Source: Bacteroidota bacterium
GTDB lineage: Bacteria > Bacteroidota > Ignavibacteria > UBA10030
DNA length: 64,000 nt
Assembly: GCA_041695085.1 (NCBI GenBank)
Contig: JBGFRO010000020.1
Span: 130,732-194,731, forward strand
Direction: 5' to 3'
A program made the position numbers and the translations under genes. The notes beneath the pieces were generated by a model, which was not told where the DNA came from, searched no databases, and saw only the letters and a program-made list of their open reading frames with translations. Positions 3,363-10,624 of this stretch are shown one piece after another; positions within the stretch are counted from its first letter, which is position 1, and each line of letters opens with the position of its first letter.

Positions 3363-4934
3363 ATGAAACTCATTCCCATGAATCGCTCCATCCATCGTGT
3401 TCTCATCCTGATCTTTGTCGGTTGTGGCGTCATTCCTCCCAGCACACGGGTTTCTGAGCTGCGACGCGTCCCGTCGGCGGAACGAGAATTCCGCGCAGTG
3501 TGGGTGGCCACTGTGAGCAACATCGATTGGCCGAGCAAGCCGGGTCTTTCTCCGGAGGATCAGCAACGGGAGGCGCGCGCAATCCTTGATTCTGTGGCCA
3601 ACCTCCGGATGAACGCCGTCATTTTTCAGGTGCGTCCCCACTGTGATGCGATGTATTATAGCGAGTTGGAGCCGTGGTCGTATTATCTGACAGGCCAGCA
3701 GGGGAAGGCGCCCGAACCGTTCTACGATCCGCTTCAATTCTGGGTGAAGGAGGCGCACGATCGGGGACTGGAACTGCACGTCTGGTTCAATCCCTATCGC
3801 GCGCATTTGCCGCGAGGGGGCGAGCCGACGGAGCATTCGATTGTTAAGAAGCGTCCCGATCTCGCAAAGAAGACCAGTGAAGGAACCTACTGGCTCGATC
3901 CGGGGAAACGGGAGGTGCAGGACATTTCGTTCAATGTCGTGATGGACGTGGTAAGAAGGTACGACATCGACGGCGTCCACTTCGATGATTATTTCTATCC
4001 GTATGGCGATGGGGATTTTCCGGATGACGACAGCTGGGGGGAGTATGTGAAATCGGGCGGCTCGCTCTCGCGCAACGATTGGCGACGCGAGAACGTGAAC
4101 ACGTTCATTCAGCGGGTGTATACCGGCATCAAGAAGGAAAAACGGCATGTGAAGTTTGGCATCAGTCCCTTCGGCATCTGGAGGCCCGGCCATCCTCCGT
4201 CTATTCAAGGGTTCGATCAGTACGACCGGCTTTTTGCAGATGCTAAGTTGTGGTTCAACAAGGGTTGGGTCGATTATTGGTCGCCGCAGTTGTACTGGCC
4301 GATCAAGCAGGTTCCACAGAGTTTTCCGGTTCTGTTAGGATGGTGGACGCGCGAGAACACGCGAGGCCGGAATCTCTGGCCCGGCATGTTCACGGGCAGG
4401 ATGGTGAGGGATAGCAGCGCGGATGAGATCCTCAATCAGATCATGATCGCTCGCGGATTTGTGCCGGAGGGGCCGGGGCACATACACTTCAGCATGAGGT
4501 CGTTCTTGCGTGACACTACCGTGCTCAGGGATGAACTGCGCCGTGGTCCCTATCATCAGCCAGCGCTTGTTCCTCCCTCCCCGTGGTTGGATGATGAGGC
4601 GCCGCTCGCGCCGATTGTGGAGTGCAGCGTTGTGAACGATACTGTCAGCGTGAACTGGTCGCACCGCCAGCCCGCGGATGTCTTCCGCTGGGTTGTCTAT
4701 TTCCAATACAACAATAGTTGGGAATATACGATACGCAACAAGAGTGACCGGACGTGGATGTTGCCTGTCTCCCGCGTGGTGGAGGATCCACCGAGGATGC
4801 GACCCGGAGATACAACGGTGCCGACAAGAACCGAGCGGTTGATGCGTATAGCCGTAAGCGCTGTCGATCGAACTGGAAATGAGAGCGAGCTCGTCCAGCG
4901 AGAGCTTCAGTCGACATCAAGCACGAACCAATAA
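3363..4934 (+). CDS. glycoside hydrolase-like family 10 (GHL10/YddW-YngK-like) lipoprotein
   Basis: 523 aa with signal peptide/lipobox (..LILIFVGCG..). Conserved REFRAVWVAT, NAVIFQVRP and HVWFNPYRA blocks are typical of the GHL10 'family 10 glycosylhydrolase-like' lipoproteins. RBS lies upstream of the ATG. Confidence 0.6.
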   Translation: MKLIPMNRSIHRVLILIFVGCGVIPPSTRVSELRRVPSAEREFRAVWVATVSNIDWPSKPGLSPEDQQREARAILDSVANLRMNAVIFQVRPHCDAMYYSELEPWSYYLTGQQGKAPEPFYDPLQFWVKEAHDRGLELHVWFNPYRAHLPRGGEPTEHSIVKKRPDLAKKTSEGTYWLDPGKREVQDISFNVVMDVVRRYDIDGVHFDDYFYPYGDGDFPDDDSWGEYVKSGGSLSRNDWRRENVNTFIQRVYTGIKKEKRHVKFGISPFGIWRPGHPPSIQGFDQYDRLFADAKLWFNKGWVDYWSPQLYWPIKQVPQSFPVLLGWWTRENTRGRNLWPGMFTGRMVRDSSADEILNQIMIARGFVPEGPGHIHFSMRSFLRDTTVLRDELRRGPYHQPALVPPSPWLDDEAPLAPIVECSVVNDTVSVNWSHRQPADVFRWVVYFQYNNSWEYTIRNKSDRTWMLPVSRVVEDPPRMRPGDTTVPTRTERLMRIAVSAVDRTGNESELVQRELQSTSSTNQ

Positions 4935-5129
4935 ATGAGAAGGCAAACGCTTGCGATCAGAAAGGGGCGTATTCTTGCGATGCTGTTCGGCATGCTTTTG
5001 GTTGCATGGTACGAGCGTTTGATTGCACAGGAATCAAAGTTCTCCGTGGGCATATCTGCTGGATTGTCGCATTTTCCACTATCGGATATGAAGGGCGCTT
5101 CAAAGCCAATCTTTCCGCGTACACCTTAA
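4935..5129 (+). pseudogene. possible N-terminal fragment of a secreted/outer-membrane protein (64 codons)
   Basis: Signal-peptide-like stretch MLFGMLLVAWYERLIAQE, then a beta-strand-like start (SKFSVGISAGLSHFP), then a stop. No domain completed. Confidence 0.2.
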
Positions 5130-5506
5130 ACGCAGGAGTTCAACTCGTCCTATAGGGATGGACAGAACAACGTAGACTGTAAACTCACGCATCTTCAACG
5201 ACACTCTGCGCAGCTCCGTCGTTTGCAGCTGCTTGCTTTATGTGTGCCGTGCAGTATCATCTGCGCCAAAAGCACAAGAGTGTCTGGCTCAAATGAGGGG
5301 GAGGTTCACACGATTTTCCTGCCACTGAATTTCCACCAAAACTTTTCCAACTTCTGCGAACTTTCTGCCCATCTCATCCCCAAATCCTTCTCCTTCTGTG
5401 ATGTTTCCAATGGTACGTAACTTGCGTAGCTTTCTCATTGGTGGAGTGTCATCTGCTCTTCCCAAAGCTGAGAGTGGCCATTGTCTTTCACTGAAGAGGC
5501 CTAACA

Positions 5507-5638
5507 ATGGAGAGAGACGAAATTCGGAAGAGAGTCGAGAAAGTCACTGCAGCCGTCCTGAAAGTGGATCCGAAGGAGATCACACCAACAGCCAACTTCG
5601 CATCCGATCTTGGGGCTTGGAAGCGCTTTGAACCATGA
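5507..5638 (+). pseudogene. acyl carrier protein 5' fragment (first ~37 codons, then frame break)
   Basis: Translation MERDEIRKRVEKVTAAVLKVDPKEITPTANFASDLGA.. aligns with the intact ACP at 8151 (MTREEVATRVINVTAREFGMKPSEIKESDQFTTDLGADSL). It loses the DSL phosphopantetheine site and terminates. Confidence 0.5.
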
Positions 5639-5645
5639 GGCGACG

Positions 5646-5723
5646 ATGGAGTTAAAGGTAGAGACCGTCAGTTACTTCAAGGACATTGAGCGAGATCATC
5701 TTGGCCTGCCGGAACTTTCTTGA
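5646..5723 (+). pseudogene. NagB-like 3' fragment (last ~24 codons)
   Basis: Translation MELKVETVSYFKDIERDHLGLPELS matches the C-terminus of the intact NagB at 9812 ([26 protein letters not shown]). The 20-nt string gttacttcaaggacattgag is shared. Confidence 0.5.
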
Positions 5724-5854
5724 ACATCGCCGGTTGCTCCCCCCCATTTTCTGCTCTCAAAATTCCCTTGATGTTCGTAAACGTATTTGGTAGAATCGGA
5801 TGTGGCTGTTCTCTTGCGAAGAGAGCCGATCTTGATAGATACTGAGGCCTTACA

Positions 5855-5910
5855 AAATGTAGGGCGGGACGATGTCCCGCCAGCCAAGGTTTTGCGAAAA
5901 AAAAGTTGAA
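5855..5910 (+). repeat. ATGTAGG + GC-rich hairpin + TTGCGAAAAA motif, copy 3 (upstream of DUF4954-like gene)
   Basis: Hairpin gtagggcgggac ga tgtcccgcc, then agccaaggttttgcgaaaaaaaagttgaaatac. Confidence 0.4.
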
Positions 5911-5978
5911 ATACAACAATCTTGCATTCTCCAAATCTATTTAACACAACACTGACATTCGATGGTACATCCCGACGT

Positions 5979-7970
5979 ATGACCTCTCCCCATCTTACCG
6001 AACAGCAAGTTCAACAACTCCTCCACCAGGGATGCACGGCCACCGATTGGCGAGCAGTCAACATTTCGCCTTCGACGGATCTTCAACGCATTCAACGTGT
6101 CCATTTCTTCGGCTCGGTCGTCGTTGGTGATCTCAGCGGTTCACACATCGTCGATGAAGTAGAAATGCGTTGCGGGATCTATCACGCTTCGATCTCCAAC
6201 TGCGTCATAGGAAACCAGGTTCGCGTTGCGCACATCGGATCGGCCATCGCGAACTACGTTGTGGAAGATGGTGTCGTCATCCAAAATGTTGCGGCCCTCA
6301 CGGCGACGCCGGGTGCCTCGTTCGGCAACGGCGTGGAGGTGGAGACGATCAACGAGGGGGGAGGTCGCACCGTTACGCTGGTCAACGATCTCACCGCGCA
6401 GGTTGCCTTTGCCCAGGCGATGATGAGACATAACGACGAATTCAATAGAAGATTGAGCGGGCTTCTGCGGAAGCATGCTCAGCGCAGTGTGAGCGACCGG
6501 GGCAAGGTAGGAACCGGCGCGCGGCTCCTCCATTGCGGTCCGATTCGCAATGTGAACATCGGTCCCTATGCGTACCTGCACGGCGCCCGATCGCTCGACA
6601 ACGGAACGATCAACAGCAGCAAAGAACATACGTCGGAAGTGGGCGCGGATGTTCAGGCGAAATCGTTCGTGATCGCCGAAGGCGCGAGGATCGAAAGCGG
6701 TGCGATTCTCGACAAGGTCTTTGTCGGTCAGGGGGTGAAAATGGGGAAACAGTTCTCAGCGGAGAACTCACTCTTCTTCGCCAACTGCGAAGCGTTTCAT
6801 GGTGAGGCGGTGGCGGTTTTTGCCGGACCCTACACCGTAACGCATCACAAATCGACGCTGTTGATCGCCGGTGTCTTTTCTTTTTATAATGCGGGCAGCG
6901 GCAGCAATCAGAGCAATCATATGTACAAACTAGGGCCGGTGCACCAGGGCATTCTTGAGCGAGGGTGCAAAACCGGTTCCTTTTCTTACTTGCTTCATGA
7001 AAATCACATCGGCGCGTTCAGTGTCGTGATCGGGAAACATTACACGAACATGAACGTCCCACATCTCCCCTTTTCGTACATTCACGAAGAAGAAGGTGTT
7101 TCGAAGATCATACCGGGTATGAATCTGTTCTCCGTTGGCATGGTGCGCGACGGTGAAAAGTGGCCGAAGCGGGATCACCGCAAAGCTACGGACAAGCGCG
7201 ATCTCATTGTCTTCGACATCTTTTCACCTTATACGGTTGAGAAGATGCGGCGAGGTCGCGACGAGCTGCTCAAACTGAGTGAGATCGTACCCAAAGAAAA
7301 ATCGTTTGTCCAATACGGCGGACTTCAGCTCAGCCGGTTGCTGCTCAAAAAGGGGGCAAAGTATTATTCCCTTGCCATCGACCGTTATCTGCACGGAAAG
7401 GTGCTCGATGCGCTGATGCGATACAGGAAGTCCAGCAAACAATGGGATGAGCTGCTCCGCAGTCTCACGCCTACATCGGATCTGCGCGCACCTGGTGAAT
7501 GGACGGACATATCGGGACTGCTCACTCCACGCGAGCGAATGGCAGCGCTGGAATCGGACGTCGCCTCCGGTTCGATCACAGGTTATGAGGAGGTACGAAA
7601 GAAATTTCAAGAAATGTTCGGTCGCTATGCGGAAGATGAATGGAAGTATGTCTGCGAGACGTACGCTTCCGAATACGGCGTGAAGCCGAACGAGATGACG
7701 AAAGAACAAGCGGCGCATGCAGTTCAGGAATGGGAGAAGGCTGCTACGTCGTTGCACGGAATGATTCTCGAGGACTCGAAGAAGGAATTTGGAGCATTCG
7801 CGCATATCGGTTACGGCGTGGACCAATCTGATGAGCATGCTCGGAAAGATTTCGAAGCTGTGCGCGGTACCATCGACACAAACCCCGTGGTGCAGAAGCT
7901 GTTGGCAGAGGGGGTCGCGATCGCGAATCGGCGAGATGAAGTTTTACGGCTGATAGAGAACGCCTCGTAA
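5979..7970 (+). CDS. DUF4954-like left-handed beta-helix (hexapeptide-repeat-like) protein
   Basis: ATG at 5979; the ORF track begins at a TTG at 5922. About 660-aa protein with repetitive [LIV]-G-x-x motifs (NCVIGNQVRVAHIGSAIANYVVEDGVVIQNV..). No catalytic family recognised. Confidence 0.55.
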   Translation: MTSPHLTEQQVQQLLHQGCTATDWRAVNISPSTDLQRIQRVHFFGSVVVGDLSGSHIVDEVEMRCGIYHASISNCVIGNQVRVAHIGSAIANYVVEDGVVIQNVAALTATPGASFGNGVEVETINEGGGRTVTLVNDLTAQVAFAQAMMRHNDEFNRRLSGLLRKHAQRSVSDRGKVGTGARLLHCGPIRNVNIGPYAYLHGARSLDNGTINSSKEHTSEVGADVQAKSFVIAEGARIESGAILDKVFVGQGVKMGKQFSAENSLFFANCEAFHGEAVAVFAGPYTVTHHKSTLLIAGVFSFYNAGSGSNQSNHMYKLGPVHQGILERGCKTGSFSYLLHENHIGAFSVVIGKHYTNMNVPHLPFSYIHEEEGVSKIIPGMNLFSVGMVRDGEKWPKRDHRKATDKRDLIVFDIFSPYTVEKMRRGRDELLKLSEIVPKEKSFVQYGGLQLSRLLLKKGAKYYSLAIDRYLHGKVLDALMRYRKSSKQWDELLRSLTPTSDLRAPGEWTDISGLLTPRERMAALESDVASGSITGYEEVRKKFQEMFGRYAEDEWKYVCETYASEYGVKPNEMTKEQAAHAVQEWEKAATSLHGMILEDSKKEFGAFAHIGYGVDQSDEHARKDFEAVRGTIDTNPVVQKLLAEGVAIANRRDEVLRLIENAS

Positions 7971-8150
7971 CGGGGGTAGGAGTCCGCCCAACGAGAGTCG
8001 GATATCAAGAGGGATTTCGATGCGGACCGCGGCTTCACCAAAGGGTTCGCGAAACGAACCGCTTCGATTGCATCGCGGTAACAGGAGTGTTTCCCATCGT
8101 CATCGTTATTTGATTTTTTTTCGGGCGTATCCATCACAAAGGAGGATAGT

Positions 8151-8393
8151 ATGACACGAGAAGAAGTAGCTACACGCGTCATCAACGTTACGGCACGGGA
8201 GTTTGGGATGAAGCCGTCGGAGATCAAGGAGTCCGACCAGTTCACCACCGATCTGGGAGCGGACTCGCTGAAATCGATTGAGCTCGTTGCGGCGTATGAA
8301 GAAGAATTCGGCATCTCCGTAAAAGAAGAAGAAGCCTTGAAAGTGCAGACCGTTGGTGGGGCCATCGACTTCTTTCTCAATCTTTCGAAATAA
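8151..8393 (+). CDS. acpP-like: acyl carrier protein
   Basis: 80 aa with DLGADSL phosphopantetheine-attachment motif. RBS aaaggagg lies upstream. Confidence 0.85.
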   Translation: MTREEVATRVINVTAREFGMKPSEIKESDQFTTDLGADSLKSIELVAAYEEEFGISVKEEEALKVQTVGGAIDFFLNLSK

Positions 8394-8410
8394 CAGAAGG
8401 AGAGTTAGCC

Positions 8411-9793
8411 ATGCGTACCTACGAGCTGCAGGACGTGCCAACGCCGAACCTGATTGAAGAGATCTTTCCCTATTCGCTCCCACCGCTGATCAAGTTTGAG
8501 GGGAAAATTCATGAATTGATCGATGGCAAGATCGTTGAGTTTGATCCAAACGAAGTCAAAACGCGCGATATTCACATTACCGACACGACCTTCCGCGACG
8601 GGCAGCAGGCGCGTCCTCCATACAAGAAAGAGCACATGGTGAAGTTGTATGAGATGCTCTCGAAATTGGGGGGACCCAACGGCGTGATTCGGCAGTCGGA
8701 ATTCTTCCTCTACACGAAAAACGACCGGGAGACAATCGATGCGTGTCGTGCGCTCAATCTCCGCTATCCCGAGATTACCGGCTGGATTCGAGCGAACAAA
8801 GGCGATTTTCGCCTTGTGAAGGAGATGGGACTAAAGGAAACGGGGATGCTCACCTCTTCATCCGACTATCACATTTTTTACAAGCAGAACCAAACGCGGA
8901 AGGAGGCGATGCAACAGTATCTCGAAGTGGTGGAGGCGGCATTTGAAGCGGGGGTGCGGCCGCGATGTCACCTCGAAGATGTCACCCGCGCCGATCTGGC
9001 CGGATTCGTCTTTCCGTTCGTTCAGCAATTGGAGCGACTGAGCGAACAGGTGCCGGAGAACATGAAAGTGAAAATCCGGCTGTGTGATACTATGGGATTC
9101 GGGCTTGCCTATCCGAATGTTGCCGAGCCGCGCTCCATCCCGAAACTCATCTGGCGACTGCGGCACGAATGCGGTCTTCCGCCGGAGCGGCTCGAATGGC
9201 ATGGCCACAACGATTTTCACAAGGTGCACATCAACGCCGCAAGTTCGTGGATCTACGGCCTCAACGCGCTCAACGGCACCCTCTTCGGATTCGGCGAGCG
9301 CACCGGCAATCCACCGATCGAAGGAGCCATCATCGAATACGTTTCGCTCAAAGGCAACCTGAATGGCGTCCATCTCGCGATGATGACGGAGATGGCGGAG
9401 TATTATGAAAAAGTCATCGGCACGCAATTGCCTGCCAACTATCCGTTTGTTGGCAGGGACTTCAATACGACGCGGGCCGGTATTCACGCGGGCGGATTGC
9501 GTAAGTTCGAACAAATTTACAACATCTTCGATACAGCGAAGTTGCTCAACCGTCCGCCGCGCGTCGCCATCACGGACAAGTCGGGCACCGACGGCGTGGC
9601 GCTCTGGGTGAACGAGTTCTTAGGTTTGAAGGGAGACGACCGTCTCTCGGTGATGAAGGTGGCGAAGATTCAGCGCTGGGTGATGGATCAGTATGAAAAG
9701 GAAGGACGGATGTCCTCGATTACCGATCAAGAGTTGGAAGAACAAGTAAAGATTCATCTGCCGGAGTACTACAACAAATACAGAAAGAATTAA
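8411..9793 (+). CDS. HMGL-like DRE-TIM metallolyase of the 2-isopropylmalate/homocitrate/Re-citrate synthase family
   Basis: DTTFRDGQQ motif near the N-terminus and a HGHNDFH metal-binding motif. 460 aa, too short to carry a LeuA regulatory domain. RBS aaggagag present; gene is tightly linked to the ACP. Confidence 0.75.
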   Translation: MRTYELQDVPTPNLIEEIFPYSLPPLIKFEGKIHELIDGKIVEFDPNEVKTRDIHITDTTFRDGQQARPPYKKEHMVKLYEMLSKLGGPNGVIRQSEFFLYTKNDRETIDACRALNLRYPEITGWIRANKGDFRLVKEMGLKETGMLTSSSDYHIFYKQNQTRKEAMQQYLEVVEAAFEAGVRPRCHLEDVTRADLAGFVFPFVQQLERLSEQVPENMKVKIRLCDTMGFGLAYPNVAEPRSIPKLIWRLRHECGLPPERLEWHGHNDFHKVHINAASSWIYGLNALNGTLFGFGERTGNPPIEGAIIEYVSLKGNLNGVHLAMMTEMAEYYEKVIGTQLPANYPFVGRDFNTTRAGIHAGGLRKFEQIYNIFDTAKLLNRPPRVAITDKSGTDGVALWVNEFLGLKGDDRLSVMKVAKIQRWVMDQYEKEGRMSSITDQELEEQVKIHLPEYYNKYRKN

Positions 9794-9811
9794 CCCCGAA
9801 AAGGAGTATGT

Positions 9812-10624
9812 ATGCGCGTCATCATCCAGCCGACCTACGAATCGGTGAGCAAGTGGACGGCGAATTACGTTGCAAAAAAGATTCGTGACTACAATCCCAC
9901 TCCCAAGAAGCCGTTTGTCTTGGGGCTGCCAACCGGTTCCTCGCCGCTCGGCACCTACAAAGAGCTTATTCAAATGTGTAAGAAAGGAATCGTGTCGTTC
10001 AAGAACGTGATCACCTTCAACATGGACGAATATGTCGGACTGCCGGAGGATCATCCGGAGAGCTACCATTCGTTTATGTGGAACAACTTCTTCAAGCATG
10101 TGGACATCAAAAAAGAGAACGTGAACATCCTCAATGGCAACGCAAAGGATCTGCAGAAGGAATGTGACGAGTATGAAAAGAAGATCAAACGTGTCGGGGG
10201 GATCCACCTCTTTCTCGGGGGCATCGGTCCGGATGGCCACATCGCGTTCAACGAGCCGGGCTCATCGCTCTCCTCGCGCACGCGCATCAAGACGCTCACG
10301 TACGACACGATTCTCGCGAATGCTCGTTTCTTCGATAACGATGTGACCAAAGTTCCGAAGACAGCTCTCACAGTGGGCGTGGCAACGGTGCTTGATGCGG
10401 AGGAGGTGTTGATTATTATTAGCGGCTATAACAAGGCGCGTGCCTTGGCGATGTGCGTAGAAGGAGGGGTGAATCATATGTGGACGGTGAGTGCGCTCCA
10501 GCTCCACCCGCACGGGATCATCGTCTGTGACGACGAATCGACGGCTGAATTGAAAGTGGGGACGGTCCGTTACTTCAAGGACATTGAGTCACCTCACCTT
10601 GATCCGGCAACGTTGCTGAAGTAA
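9812..10624 (+). CDS. nagB: glucosamine-6-phosphate deaminase/isomerase family protein
   Basis: 270 aa with NMDEYVGL and [16 protein letters not shown] motifs. RBS aaaaggag present. Confidence 0.85.

Follow-up and report, generated by a model that had tools for sequence, protein, structure and literature searches.

Citrate lyase (CitDEF) and malonate decarboxylase work with acetyl and citryl groups bound as thioesters to a small carrier protein instead of CoA, and the left-handed beta-helix acyltransferases LpxD, LpxA and GlmU modify amino sugars using acyl-ACP or acetyl-CoA. Members of the Re-citrate synthase and ADP-forming acyl-CoA-synthetase-like families normally use acetyl-CoA. The Re-citrate synthase of the Clostridium kluyveri and Syntrophus aciditrophicus type has the number EC 2.3.3.3 (Li et al. 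2007, cited in PMC12016533 and PMC8027424). The window analyzed here (a 64,000-nucleotide stretch of contig JBGFRO010000020.1 from a Bacteroidota bacterium of the class Ignavibacteria) contains a four-gene cassette at positions 5979-10624, one form of a gene module that recurs widely and is so far undescribed; a literature search that included DUF4954, TIGR03991, and Re-citrate synthase together with ACP found no relevant paper on it. The arrangement of the module suggests an undescribed route by which acetyl could pass between the metabolism of amino sugars and the citric acid cycle.

Gene content of the cassette and the relic upstream

All four genes of the cassette reported in the initial annotation were recovered by ORF calling, each on the forward strand, and the observation of the cassette is confirmed. 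The first gene (5979..7970) encodes a protein with Pfam matches to DUF4954 (9e-170, 565.4 bits) and DUF6819 (4e-41, 141 bits); its reading frame is open from a TTG at 5922, and a start at the ATG at 5979 gives 663 aa, the length found in homologues. It is followed by genes for an 80-aa ACP (8151..8393; PP-binding, 2e-11), a 460-aa Claisen condensing enzyme assigned to the Re-citrate synthase family (8411..9793; HMGL-like, 4e-22), and a 270-aa glucosamine-6-phosphate deaminase, NagB (9812..10624; Glucosamine_iso, 9e-19). The NagB protein matches TIGR00502 over model positions 1-259 of 259 (NCBIfam, 430.7 bits versus a cut-off of 236.9) and was the only Glucosamine_iso-family gene found in a search of its own genome. 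The short intergenic spacing is real, although the earlier figures of 18 and 19 nt are each one too high: 17 nt separate the ACP stop from the synthase ATG, with AAGGAGAG in the gap, and 18 nt separate the synthase stop from the nagB ATG, with AAAGGAG in the gap. A scan for sigma-70 promoters and terminators, which is ill-suited to this phylum, found sites no commoner than in shuffled sequences.

The partial duplicate previously noticed upstream of the cassette also exists, but comparison with a sister genome (G045) indicates that it derives from a paralogous ACP-ligase-NagB unit and not from the ACP-synthase-NagB unit. Based on blastn and tblastn searches against that genome, the left half of the relic (5331..5617, forward strand) comprises the leader and first 37 codons (ATG at 5507) of a second ACP gene, with the codons at 5507-5617 breaking off directly after DLGA, ahead of the phosphopantetheine serine. 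The right half (5631..5826, forward strand) comprises the last ~38 codons of a second nagB (5631-5744, corresponding to residues 240-277 of the sister protein) and its downstream DNA. In the sister locus (order GHL10-ACP-ligase-NagB-DUF4954-ACP-synthase-NagB; L096) the ACP-ligase-NagB unit is intact, and the two halves are what a 3.0-kb deletion left behind; lost were the 3' part of the second ACP gene, a 710-aa ADP-forming acyl-CoA-synthetase-like gene, which lies at 4401-6533 of the sister locus, and most of the second nagB.

A dedicated ACP and an ACP-linked branch of the Re-citrate synthases

By its sequence, the ACP belongs to a distinct, dedicated ACP family. PF00550 matches it at 44.3 bits (cut-off 20.8), its Ser39, in the motif DLGADSL, is invariant in 19 aligned sequences, and a family HMM (consensus ...DLGA[DE]Sx[QK]S[IV]EL..FEEEF.IEMDED.A..VQTVG.AV.FI) scores members at 99-124 bits versus 71-82 bits for housekeeping AcpP-type proteins. 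The AcpP equivalog cut-offs are narrowly missed (69.6 versus 71 for NF002148; 66.7 versus 70.45 for TIGR00517), and a separate AcpP-type gene (motif DSLDTVELV) lies on another contig of the same genome (C41). A search for carrier fusions found no ACP-synthase or ACP-ligase fusions, for which it is a weak test. The same search gave one 249-aa ACP+NagB call (P0125) and an apparent 785-aa DUF4954-DUF6819-ACP fusion (P0128), the latter being treated as read-through of adjacent genes, with a ~75-residue linker that resembles a translated intergenic spacer and an ACP that starts from an internal Met.

Phylogenetic placement of the synthase, which the initial annotation had recommended, puts it firmly within the Re-citrate synthases, and on sequence grounds it is assigned to that family rather than to LeuA, NifV or CimA. 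Over residues 4-454 the protein aligns with the citrate (Re)-synthase of S. aciditrophicus (P0255, named from UniRef) at 52% identity (E 1e-176), and it nests among 84 family members in the tree, with the LeuA-type proteins of its own genome forming a distant outgroup. Its best scores against curated NCBIfam models fall far below the cut-offs (NifV, 124 bits versus 463; IPMS, 111 bits versus 517). Pfam detects an HMGL-like domain (79.5 bits) and no LeuA-type C-terminal regulatory domain, and the motifs DTTFRDGQQ, HLED and EWHGHND align to DVTLRDGEQ, YLED and EFHGHND of LiCMS, so that the metal and catalytic motifs are all kept. The synthase is not a housekeeping enzyme: the same genome encodes a Si-citrate synthase, LeuA, and a second LeuA-like enzyme (the LeuA-type genes lie on contig C12), and a search across 151 genomes of the class found the synthase gene in only 3. 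A role as the only citrate synthase of the genome is ruled out by the Si-citrate synthase gene.

The ACP gene is next door in 13 of the 21 members of the well-supported sub-clade that contains this synthase, versus 0 of the 63 family members outside it. All 13 ACP-adjacent synthases, plus one with an ACP in the same cluster, fall inside a single starred clade of the tree (21-22 rows), and no ACP, NagB or DUF4954 was found near the synthase in the 63 members beyond it. Some clade members have their carrier at a distance (G093, G404 and G401 have no adjacent ACP and encode a family ACP elsewhere, beside a ligase or a DUF4954-like gene), one (G403) has it only as a disrupted, probably frameshifted copy within an ACD-ACP-NagB-altGlmU unit, and two Spirochaetota genomes with a synthase of this clade contain AcpP-type ACPs only and lack this ACP family.

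The clade is also marked by a changed cap motif, which reads AGIHAGGLR in the synthase (Gly361) in place of AGxHADGL. The Asp of HADG is present in 62 of 62 sequences outside the ACP-linked clade, with Gly at the same position in 20 of 21 inside; amongst synthase copies from metagenome loci found with the ACP, Gly replaces the Asp in 33 of 37 and the other four keep HADG. Conserved basic residues (R52, R134, R364, and K416) have been gained in the ACP-linked clade as well. In IPMS, the region of the cap motif is an accessory subdomain that covers the active site of the partner subunit (PMC9860122). At 151 of the 159 positions conserved in both clades, the residues are identical to those of ordinary Re-citrate synthases; the same chemistry is therefore to be expected, with only the thioester carrier in question, and the ACP-tethered 2-oxo-acid pathway raised in the initial annotation is left unsupported. 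An uncontrolled complex prediction for the ACP and the synthase gave a score of 0.01 and is evidence neither way.

Conservation of the module and its beta-helix protein

The ACP-synthase-NagB linkage (with DUF4954) is a conserved functional unit, as had been supposed from the single locus, and is found in Bacteroidota/Ignavibacteria, an 'Armatimonadetes'-labelled MAG, Planctomycetota, Gemmatimonadota, and Latescibacterota. The initial annotation had named two results that together would speak against such a unit, firm clustering of the synthase with Re-citrate synthases or LeuA and an ACP linkage that is not conserved; the first is observed and the second is not, and the suggestion is not refuted. 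In a metagenome scan seeded with the ACP family alone (37 loci counted, each with at least 1.5 kb of flank on both sides), the ACP has either this synthase or an ADP-forming acyl-CoA-synthetase-like ligase no more than 500 nt away in 36 loci, an alternative GlmU or DUF4954 is also adjacent in 26, and NagB is present in 21. Of the 96 module loci, one contains NagA and none contains GlmS. The ACP-adjacent ligases form one clade (support 100*) apart from 25 ordinary homologues without an ACP, and ligase identity falls from 67-73% to 45% or less across the boundary of this clade; two unrelated acetyl-CoA enzyme families have thus each given rise to an ACP-linked branch. Acetyl is what the neighbours have in common: the ligase, acetate kinase, phosphotransacetylase, and a GlmU-type acetyltransferase are among them. 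In Planctomycetota modules, DUF4954 is replaced by an alternative GlmU (TIGR03991, 323 bits versus a cut-off of 225), and in Gemmatimonadota an Ldh2-type 2-hydroxyacid dehydrogenase follows the synthase. It is extremely improbable that a housekeeping Re-citrate synthase and an unrelated ACP became neighbours by chance in this lineage: although four clade members (L011, L013, L025, and L029) have no ACP next door, the same gene order recurs in at least five phyla and dozens of metagenome contigs, and the synthase is rare in its own class and accompanied by a Si-citrate synthase.

AlphaFold (pLDDT 78, pTM 0.82) models the DUF4954 protein with a left-handed beta-helix at the N-terminus and a helical domain at the C-terminus. 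The best structural matches of the model (VIA-align, residues ~20-316) are LpxD (Z 12.9), the acetyltransferase domain of GlmU (Z 12.8), and an LpxD-ACP complex (4ihf; Z 12.5). These beta-helix matches emerged only from this wider search, Foldseek of the model against the PDB having returned nothing at E <= 0.001; a sequence search of solved structures gave no significant match, and profile comparison with the alternative GlmU was weak (31% probability). His290 is invariant and sits in a low-confidence segment of the model. DUF4954 is also found in Bacteroides thetaiotaomicron and is present in Treponema pallidum (PMC6953169). A function in which it stands in for a missing GlmU, GlmS or NagA was rejected, as NagA, GlmS and an alternative GlmU are all encoded elsewhere in this genome.

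The structural matches bear on a possible, though doubtful, explanation in which the synthase is an ordinary Re-citrate synthase that depends on acetyl-CoA, is regulated together with NagB, and provides 2-oxoglutarate for the ammonia released by deamination, and the ACP either serves another partner (for example, the beta-helix protein, working in the manner of LpxD as an N-acyltransferase that draws on acyl-ACP) or is a regulatory subunit. The closeness of the beta-helix to LpxD and GlmU, including the LpxD-ACP entry, is in keeping with this explanation, but the steadiest neighbour of the ACP is the synthase or ligase (36/37) and not the beta-helix protein (26/37), the ACP lies two genes away from DUF4954 in ACP-ligase-NagB-DUF4954 units, and six Bacteroidota genomes from outside the class of the window have DUF4954 but not this ACP. 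Also in its favour, the catalytic core is almost identical to that of known Re-citrate synthases, NagB is the most constant metabolic partner, and the ammonia-handling AsnA adjoins ACP-less clade members in two loci (L028 and L029), whereas the presence of ACP-specific clades in both thioester enzyme families, with a changed cap motif in that of the synthase, counts against it.

A possible acetyl-ACP route and its relation to known systems

As with the acyl-ACP donor suggested in the initial annotation, we infer that the ACP is the substrate carrier, that acetyl is the acyl group, and that the flow has the direction given below. The preferred reading, to which we assign slightly less than an even chance, is that the ACP carries acetyl for the module enzymes and that the synthase makes citrate from acetyl-ACP and oxaloacetate. 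The module comprises the dedicated ACP, a Re-citrate-synthase paralogue and/or an ADP-forming acyl-CoA-synthetase-like ligase, and NagB with the beta-helix protein; the phosphopantetheine thiol of the ACP would take the place of CoA as acetyl carrier. The synthase would convert acetyl-S-ACP and oxaloacetate to (Re)-citrate and free holo-ACP, the ligase of the sister genome would load or unload the same ACP (acetate + ATP + HS-ACP <-> acetyl-S-ACP + ADP + Pi), and the beta-helix protein would shuttle acetyl between the ACP and glucosamine phosphate. In this genome, the net result would be transfer of the acetyl part of a GlcNAc-derived sugar to citrate and on to 2-oxoglutarate, while NagB would free fructose-6-P and ammonia.

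Several points count against this proposal. To our knowledge, no DRE-TIM synthase or NDP-forming ligase is biochemically known to accept an ACP thioester. With the ligase lost from the genome of the window, the proposal does not account for the source of acetyl-ACP here, and with NagA, GlmS and the alternative GlmU encoded elsewhere, ordinary CoA-based routes would suffice. Also counted against it are the retention of HADG in 4 of 37 synthases, the absence of the ACP family from the two Spirochaetota members, and the lone DUF4954 of six Bacteroidota. From textbook free energies it can be estimated that transfer from an acetyl amide to a thioester is uphill, and that the synthase can pull it but the ligase hardly can; loading from acetate suits the ligase only, and thermodynamically no single direction fits all variants of the module. 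A bolder form of the acetyl-ACP proposal, which we regard as unlikely, holds that several phyla maintain a private ACP-bound acetyl pool insulated from acetyl-CoA. The beta-helix transferase would move the N-acetyl group of an amino-sugar phosphate straight to the ACP, replacing NagA hydrolysis, and the ACP-specific citrate synthase and ADP-forming ligase would keep the carrier nearly unloaded so that the uphill transfer runs, the acetyl being saved as citrate or ATP instead of being lost as acetate.

Alternatively, the module may be biosynthetic and assemble on its carrier an N-acylated amino sugar of an unusual kind. A citryl- or other carboxyacyl-ACP would then come from the synthase and ligase without being hydrolysed, and the beta-helix transferase would pass it to glucosamine phosphate formed by NagB in reverse. 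With the cap Asp gone, hydrolysis of the thioester could fail, the ligase family has relatives that activate citrate, succinate, and hydroxy acids, and the closest folds to DUF4954 are beta-helix amino-sugar N-acyltransferases. GT9, PhyH-like, and Kdo-kinase-like genes do lie nearby in some loci, but no glycosyltransferase, exporter or tailoring gene is recurrent and few neighbours are shared beyond the five module families. As NagB also fits the catabolic E. coli-type equivalog and the neighbouring acetate kinase and phosphotransacetylase indicate plain acetyl metabolism, a biosynthetic role is judged quite improbable.

If the ACP does replace CoA, the module would supply the first demonstrated case of a DRE-TIM Claisen enzyme, and likewise of an NDP-forming ligase, that acts on a carrier protein, and acetyl-ACP would constitute a second acetyl-group currency in central metabolism. 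The module would then provide the first functional context for DUF4954 and the 'alternative GlmU' family, and thousands of genes that now carry the label 2-isopropylmalate synthase or citrate (Re)-synthase in environmental genomes, those of Bacteroidota and Planctomycetota among them, would have to be reread. This would in turn affect models of how amino sugars from chitin and peptidoglycan are turned over in sediments and bioreactors.

Compared with described systems, the module enzyme resembles Re-citrate synthase in belonging to the same DRE-TIM family and length class and in lacking the LeuA regulatory domain. It differs in belonging to a sub-clade of its own that is linked with a dedicated ACP, NagB, and the beta-helix protein, in having HAGG and gained basic residues versus an invariant HADG, in lacking the C-terminal Cache domain of the S. 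aciditrophicus form, and in co-existing with a Si-citrate synthase, which the anaerobes that rely on a classical Re-citrate synthase are described as lacking. As in E. coli nagBA, the NagB of the module is a full-scoring NagB equivalog, but NagA lies outside the module, and the ACP, the beta-helix protein, and acetyl-thioester enzymes are found instead. The modelled beta-helix of DUF4954 resembles LpxD, LpxA and GlmU (Z 12-13, rmsd ~3 A over ~180 residues), while the protein has an extra C-terminal part of ~350 residues that includes DUF6819. No citrate lyase or malonate decarboxylase genes (CitE/CitF, Mdc) are among the recurrent neighbours of the module, the subunits of citrate lyase are not DRE-TIM enzymes, unlike the module synthase, and the carriers CitD and MdcC have another fold and a 2'-(5''-phosphoribosyl)-3'-dephospho-CoA group, whereas the module ACP is of the PP-binding type; the working principle of citrate lyase and malonate decarboxylase is nevertheless the same as that proposed here for the module.

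Gene content of the cassette and of the unit beside it

All four forward-strand genes that the initial annotation placed in this cassette are present as described. The reading frame of the DUF4954 gene is open from a TTG at 5922, and a start at the ATG at 5979 (gene 5979-7970) gives a product of 663 aa, a length common to its homologues, with DUF4954 and DUF6819 domains (Pfam, as for the other products). The gene is followed by those for an 80-aa ACP carrying DLGADSL (8151-8393; PP-binding domain), a 460-aa synthase (8411-9793; HMGL-like domain), and a 270-aa NagB (9812-10624; Glucosamine_iso domain) that passes the NagB equivalog (430.7 bits versus a cut-off of 236.9). The gaps between ACP and synthase (17 nt) and between synthase and nagB (18 nt) both contain a Shine-Dalgarno-like GGAG. 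A search of the same genome found no second NagB gene outside the cassette, and its NagA, GlmS, and alternative GlmU are all encoded elsewhere.

The partial duplicate reported upstream is real but derives from a ligase unit rather than from a duplicated synthase operon, because one end of the ACP2-ligase-NagB2 block in the sister genome (G045) aligns with positions 5331-5617 of the window and the other end with 5631-5826; in G045 the gene order is GHL10 - ACP2 - ligase - NagB2 - DUF4954 - ACP - synthase - NagB. In the window, the middle of this block has been lost by a 3.0-kb deletion. The GHL10 (glycosyl-hydrolase-like 10) gene upstream of the relic (3363-4934) has a counterpart at the equivalent position in G045 (89% protein identity). 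The sister ligase (710 aa) is ADP-forming acyl-CoA-synthetase-like, and other related genomes of the same family show the order ACP-ligase-NagB-DUF4954, with the synthase present or absent. ACP-adjacent ligases form a single clade (support 100) apart from 25 ordinary Bacteroidota homologues without ACP, and identity drops from 67-73% to at most 45% between the two groups.

Identity of the synthase and its linkage to the ACP

Of the earlier description of the synthase as homocitrate/isopropylmalate/Re-citrate-synthase-like, only the last part holds: its scores fall far under all LeuA, NifV, and CimA cut-offs and no regulatory domain was found with Pfam, ruling out those identities. Close homologues carry the JGI label citrate (Re)-synthase, and residues 4-454 share 52% identity (E 1e-176) with a Syntrophus aciditrophicus protein so named in UniRef. 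The isolated Re-citrate synthases are those of S. aciditrophicus and Clostridium kluyveri (PMC12016533); a Kuenenia homologue is reported to share 55% identity with the C. kluyveri enzyme (PMC8027424), and the Kuenenia hertensis copy (L093) shares 51% with the window synthase. The metal and catalytic motifs of a citramalate synthase structure align with those of the window synthase. A role as the main citrate synthase was rejected since the genome also encodes a citrate synthase of the Si type (463 bits); LeuA and another LeuA-like gene are encoded as well. Within the class, just 3 of 151 genomes were found to carry the window's synthase gene. Elsewhere in the family, proteins P0150-P0269 (homologues of L045:8001-9314) are Syntrophales-type Re-citrate synthases that are 629 aa long and carry a dCache domain (PF02743) at the C terminus; their various NCBI names ('histone-lysine N-methyltransferase' or 'triose-phosphate isomerase') are evident misannotations.

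Linkage was screened, with the window's proteins as queries, in the best 80 genome-collection loci with synthase relatives plus a few loci from related genomes or assemblies; because MAGs make up most of the comparison set, phylum labels and missing genes should be read as provisional. Among relatives with at least 66% identity (Bacteroidota, an 'Armatimonadetes' MAG, Pirellulales, Latescibacterota, and Gemmatimonadota), the ACP mostly adjoins the synthase directly, with NagB and often DUF4954 nearby, and the 'Armatimonadetes' locus (L015) has the identical four genes in identical order. No ACP, NagB, or DUF4954 was found beside the 63 relatives at 51-57% identity in this set (Syntrophales, Nitrospirota, Brocadiaceae, Lentisphaerota, and others). 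In a maximum-likelihood tree, all ACP-linked synthases fall in one clade (21-22 rows, SH-aLRT 97-99) nested within the family. The ACP-synthase-NagB linkage, whose conservation the initial annotation proposed to check, is thus kept across phyla and confined to one synthase clade, which the ACP linkage defines. Three genomes of this clade without an adjacent ACP (G093, G404, and G401) have the same ACP family elsewhere, beside a ligase or DUF4954-like gene; in a fourth (G403) the sole copy is disrupted, probably frameshifted, within an ACD-ACP-NagB-altGlmU unit (ACD being the ligase), and two Spirochaetota members have AcpP-type ACPs only. Considering these exceptions beside the conservation, chance adjacency is highly improbable. 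The gene after an ACP-linked synthase encodes an Ldh2-family 2-hydroxyacid dehydrogenase in Gemmatimonadota (L024:9437-10453) and acetate kinase in Latescibacterota (L023:9397-10539), and in L213 phosphotransacetylase lies just downstream.

A total of 159 positions are conserved within the linked clade and also among the remaining family members; at 151 of them the residue is identical, which argues that the chemistry and 2-oxo-acid substrate of the linked synthases are most likely unchanged. The clade differences cluster in the accessory subdomain, which in isopropylmalate synthase caps the partner subunit's active site and is required for catalysis (PMC9860122). Asp361 of the motif A-G-x-H-A-D-G is Asp in 62/62 sequences outside the linked clade and Gly in 20/21 inside it (Gly also in 33/37 ACP-seeded copies); positions 364, 394, and 416 have changed to Arg, Asp, and Lys, and R52 and R134 are fixed. 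Basic residues acquired at an active-site entrance would be a plausible match for an acidic carrier protein. An ordinary acetyl-CoA-dependent synthase, with the neighboring ACP serving another partner or a regulatory role, would be compatible with the shared conserved positions and leaves the clade-specific residues to be explained; we consider it rather unlikely.

The module in metagenomes and its beta-helix partner

Metagenomic contigs were scanned with the ACP family as the sole seed, because a synthase-based seed would introduce bias, and loci were counted if flanked by at least 1.5 kb on each side (n=37). A synthase or ligase lies within 500 nt of the ACP in 36 of the 37, a beta-helix protein adjoins in 26 (usually 'alternative GlmU', with TIGR03991 at 323 bits versus a cut-off of 225, otherwise DUF4954), and NagB is present in 21; the most frequent order is NagB - altGlmU - ACP - synthase. 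In the sole exception (L168), the ACP is followed by a convergent gene (4109-6160, minus strand) whose 683-aa product is of unknown family. Occasional neighbors are acetate kinase, phosphotransacetylase, and NamZ. GlmS was found in 0 of 96 module loci and NagA in one, a variant module (L157:1-3376; acetate kinase - alt-GlmU - ACP - NagA) in which NagA occupies the usual synthase/ligase position. A biosynthetic N-acyl-sugar pathway is considered improbable. Some Pirellulales-type genomes have, besides the alt-GlmU gene of the module, a second copy outside it (G406:C1:46899-48083 and G407:C58:7398-8612); in G405 and G409 the module copy is the only one above cut-off and would therefore have to double as the housekeeping GlmU.

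The cassette ACP family is distinct from AcpP (the family HMM gives members 99-124 bits and AcpP-type proteins 71-82 bits), and its serine is invariant in the alignment. In the DUF4954 model (pLDDT 78), the N-terminal part forms a left-handed beta-helix. In structure it comes closest to LpxD, the acetyltransferase domain of GlmU, and an LpxD-ACP complex entry (Z 12-13), with weak links to such proteins at the sequence level. A 468-aa Desulfobacteraceae protein (L261:1104-2510; also L262), which scores 255 bits against the cassette-ACP profile, consists of several ACP-family domains in tandem; its gene lies between cold-shock-domain genes, with no synthase or ligase seen on the short contig. 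A 785-aa gene call (L260:7001-9358) appends a cassette-type ACP to DUF4954-DUF6819, with no synthase, ligase, or NagB detected downstream; its linker of ~75 residues resembles translated spacer, so it is probably a read-through of two neighboring genes rather than a true fusion.

Possible role of the dedicated ACP

Acetyl-CoA is the usual substrate of citrate synthase, the ADP-forming ligase, and GlmU-type/beta-helix transferases. Here these three enzyme types are grouped around one dedicated ACP, with ACP-specific clades in two of them (synthase and ligase). The simplest unifying reading is that the ACP carries acetyl for all three; that it is the acyl carrier of the synthase is a possibility we favor tentatively. 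The window synthase would then convert acetyl-ACP and oxaloacetate to citrate. Estimated from textbook free energies, moving acetyl from a sugar amide to a thiol would be uphill, a step that the synthase could pull and the ligase hardly could, while loading of the ACP from acetate and ATP would fit the ligase. A private carrier held nearly unloaded could be one reason for using ACP over CoA.

A literature search found no paper on DUF4954 function or TIGR03991, nor any describing linkage of an ACP with Re-citrate synthase, with NagB, or with an ADP-forming ligase. The synthase is a variant of the known Re-citrate synthase family, and the module as a whole, going by its genes, may constitute a new pathway.
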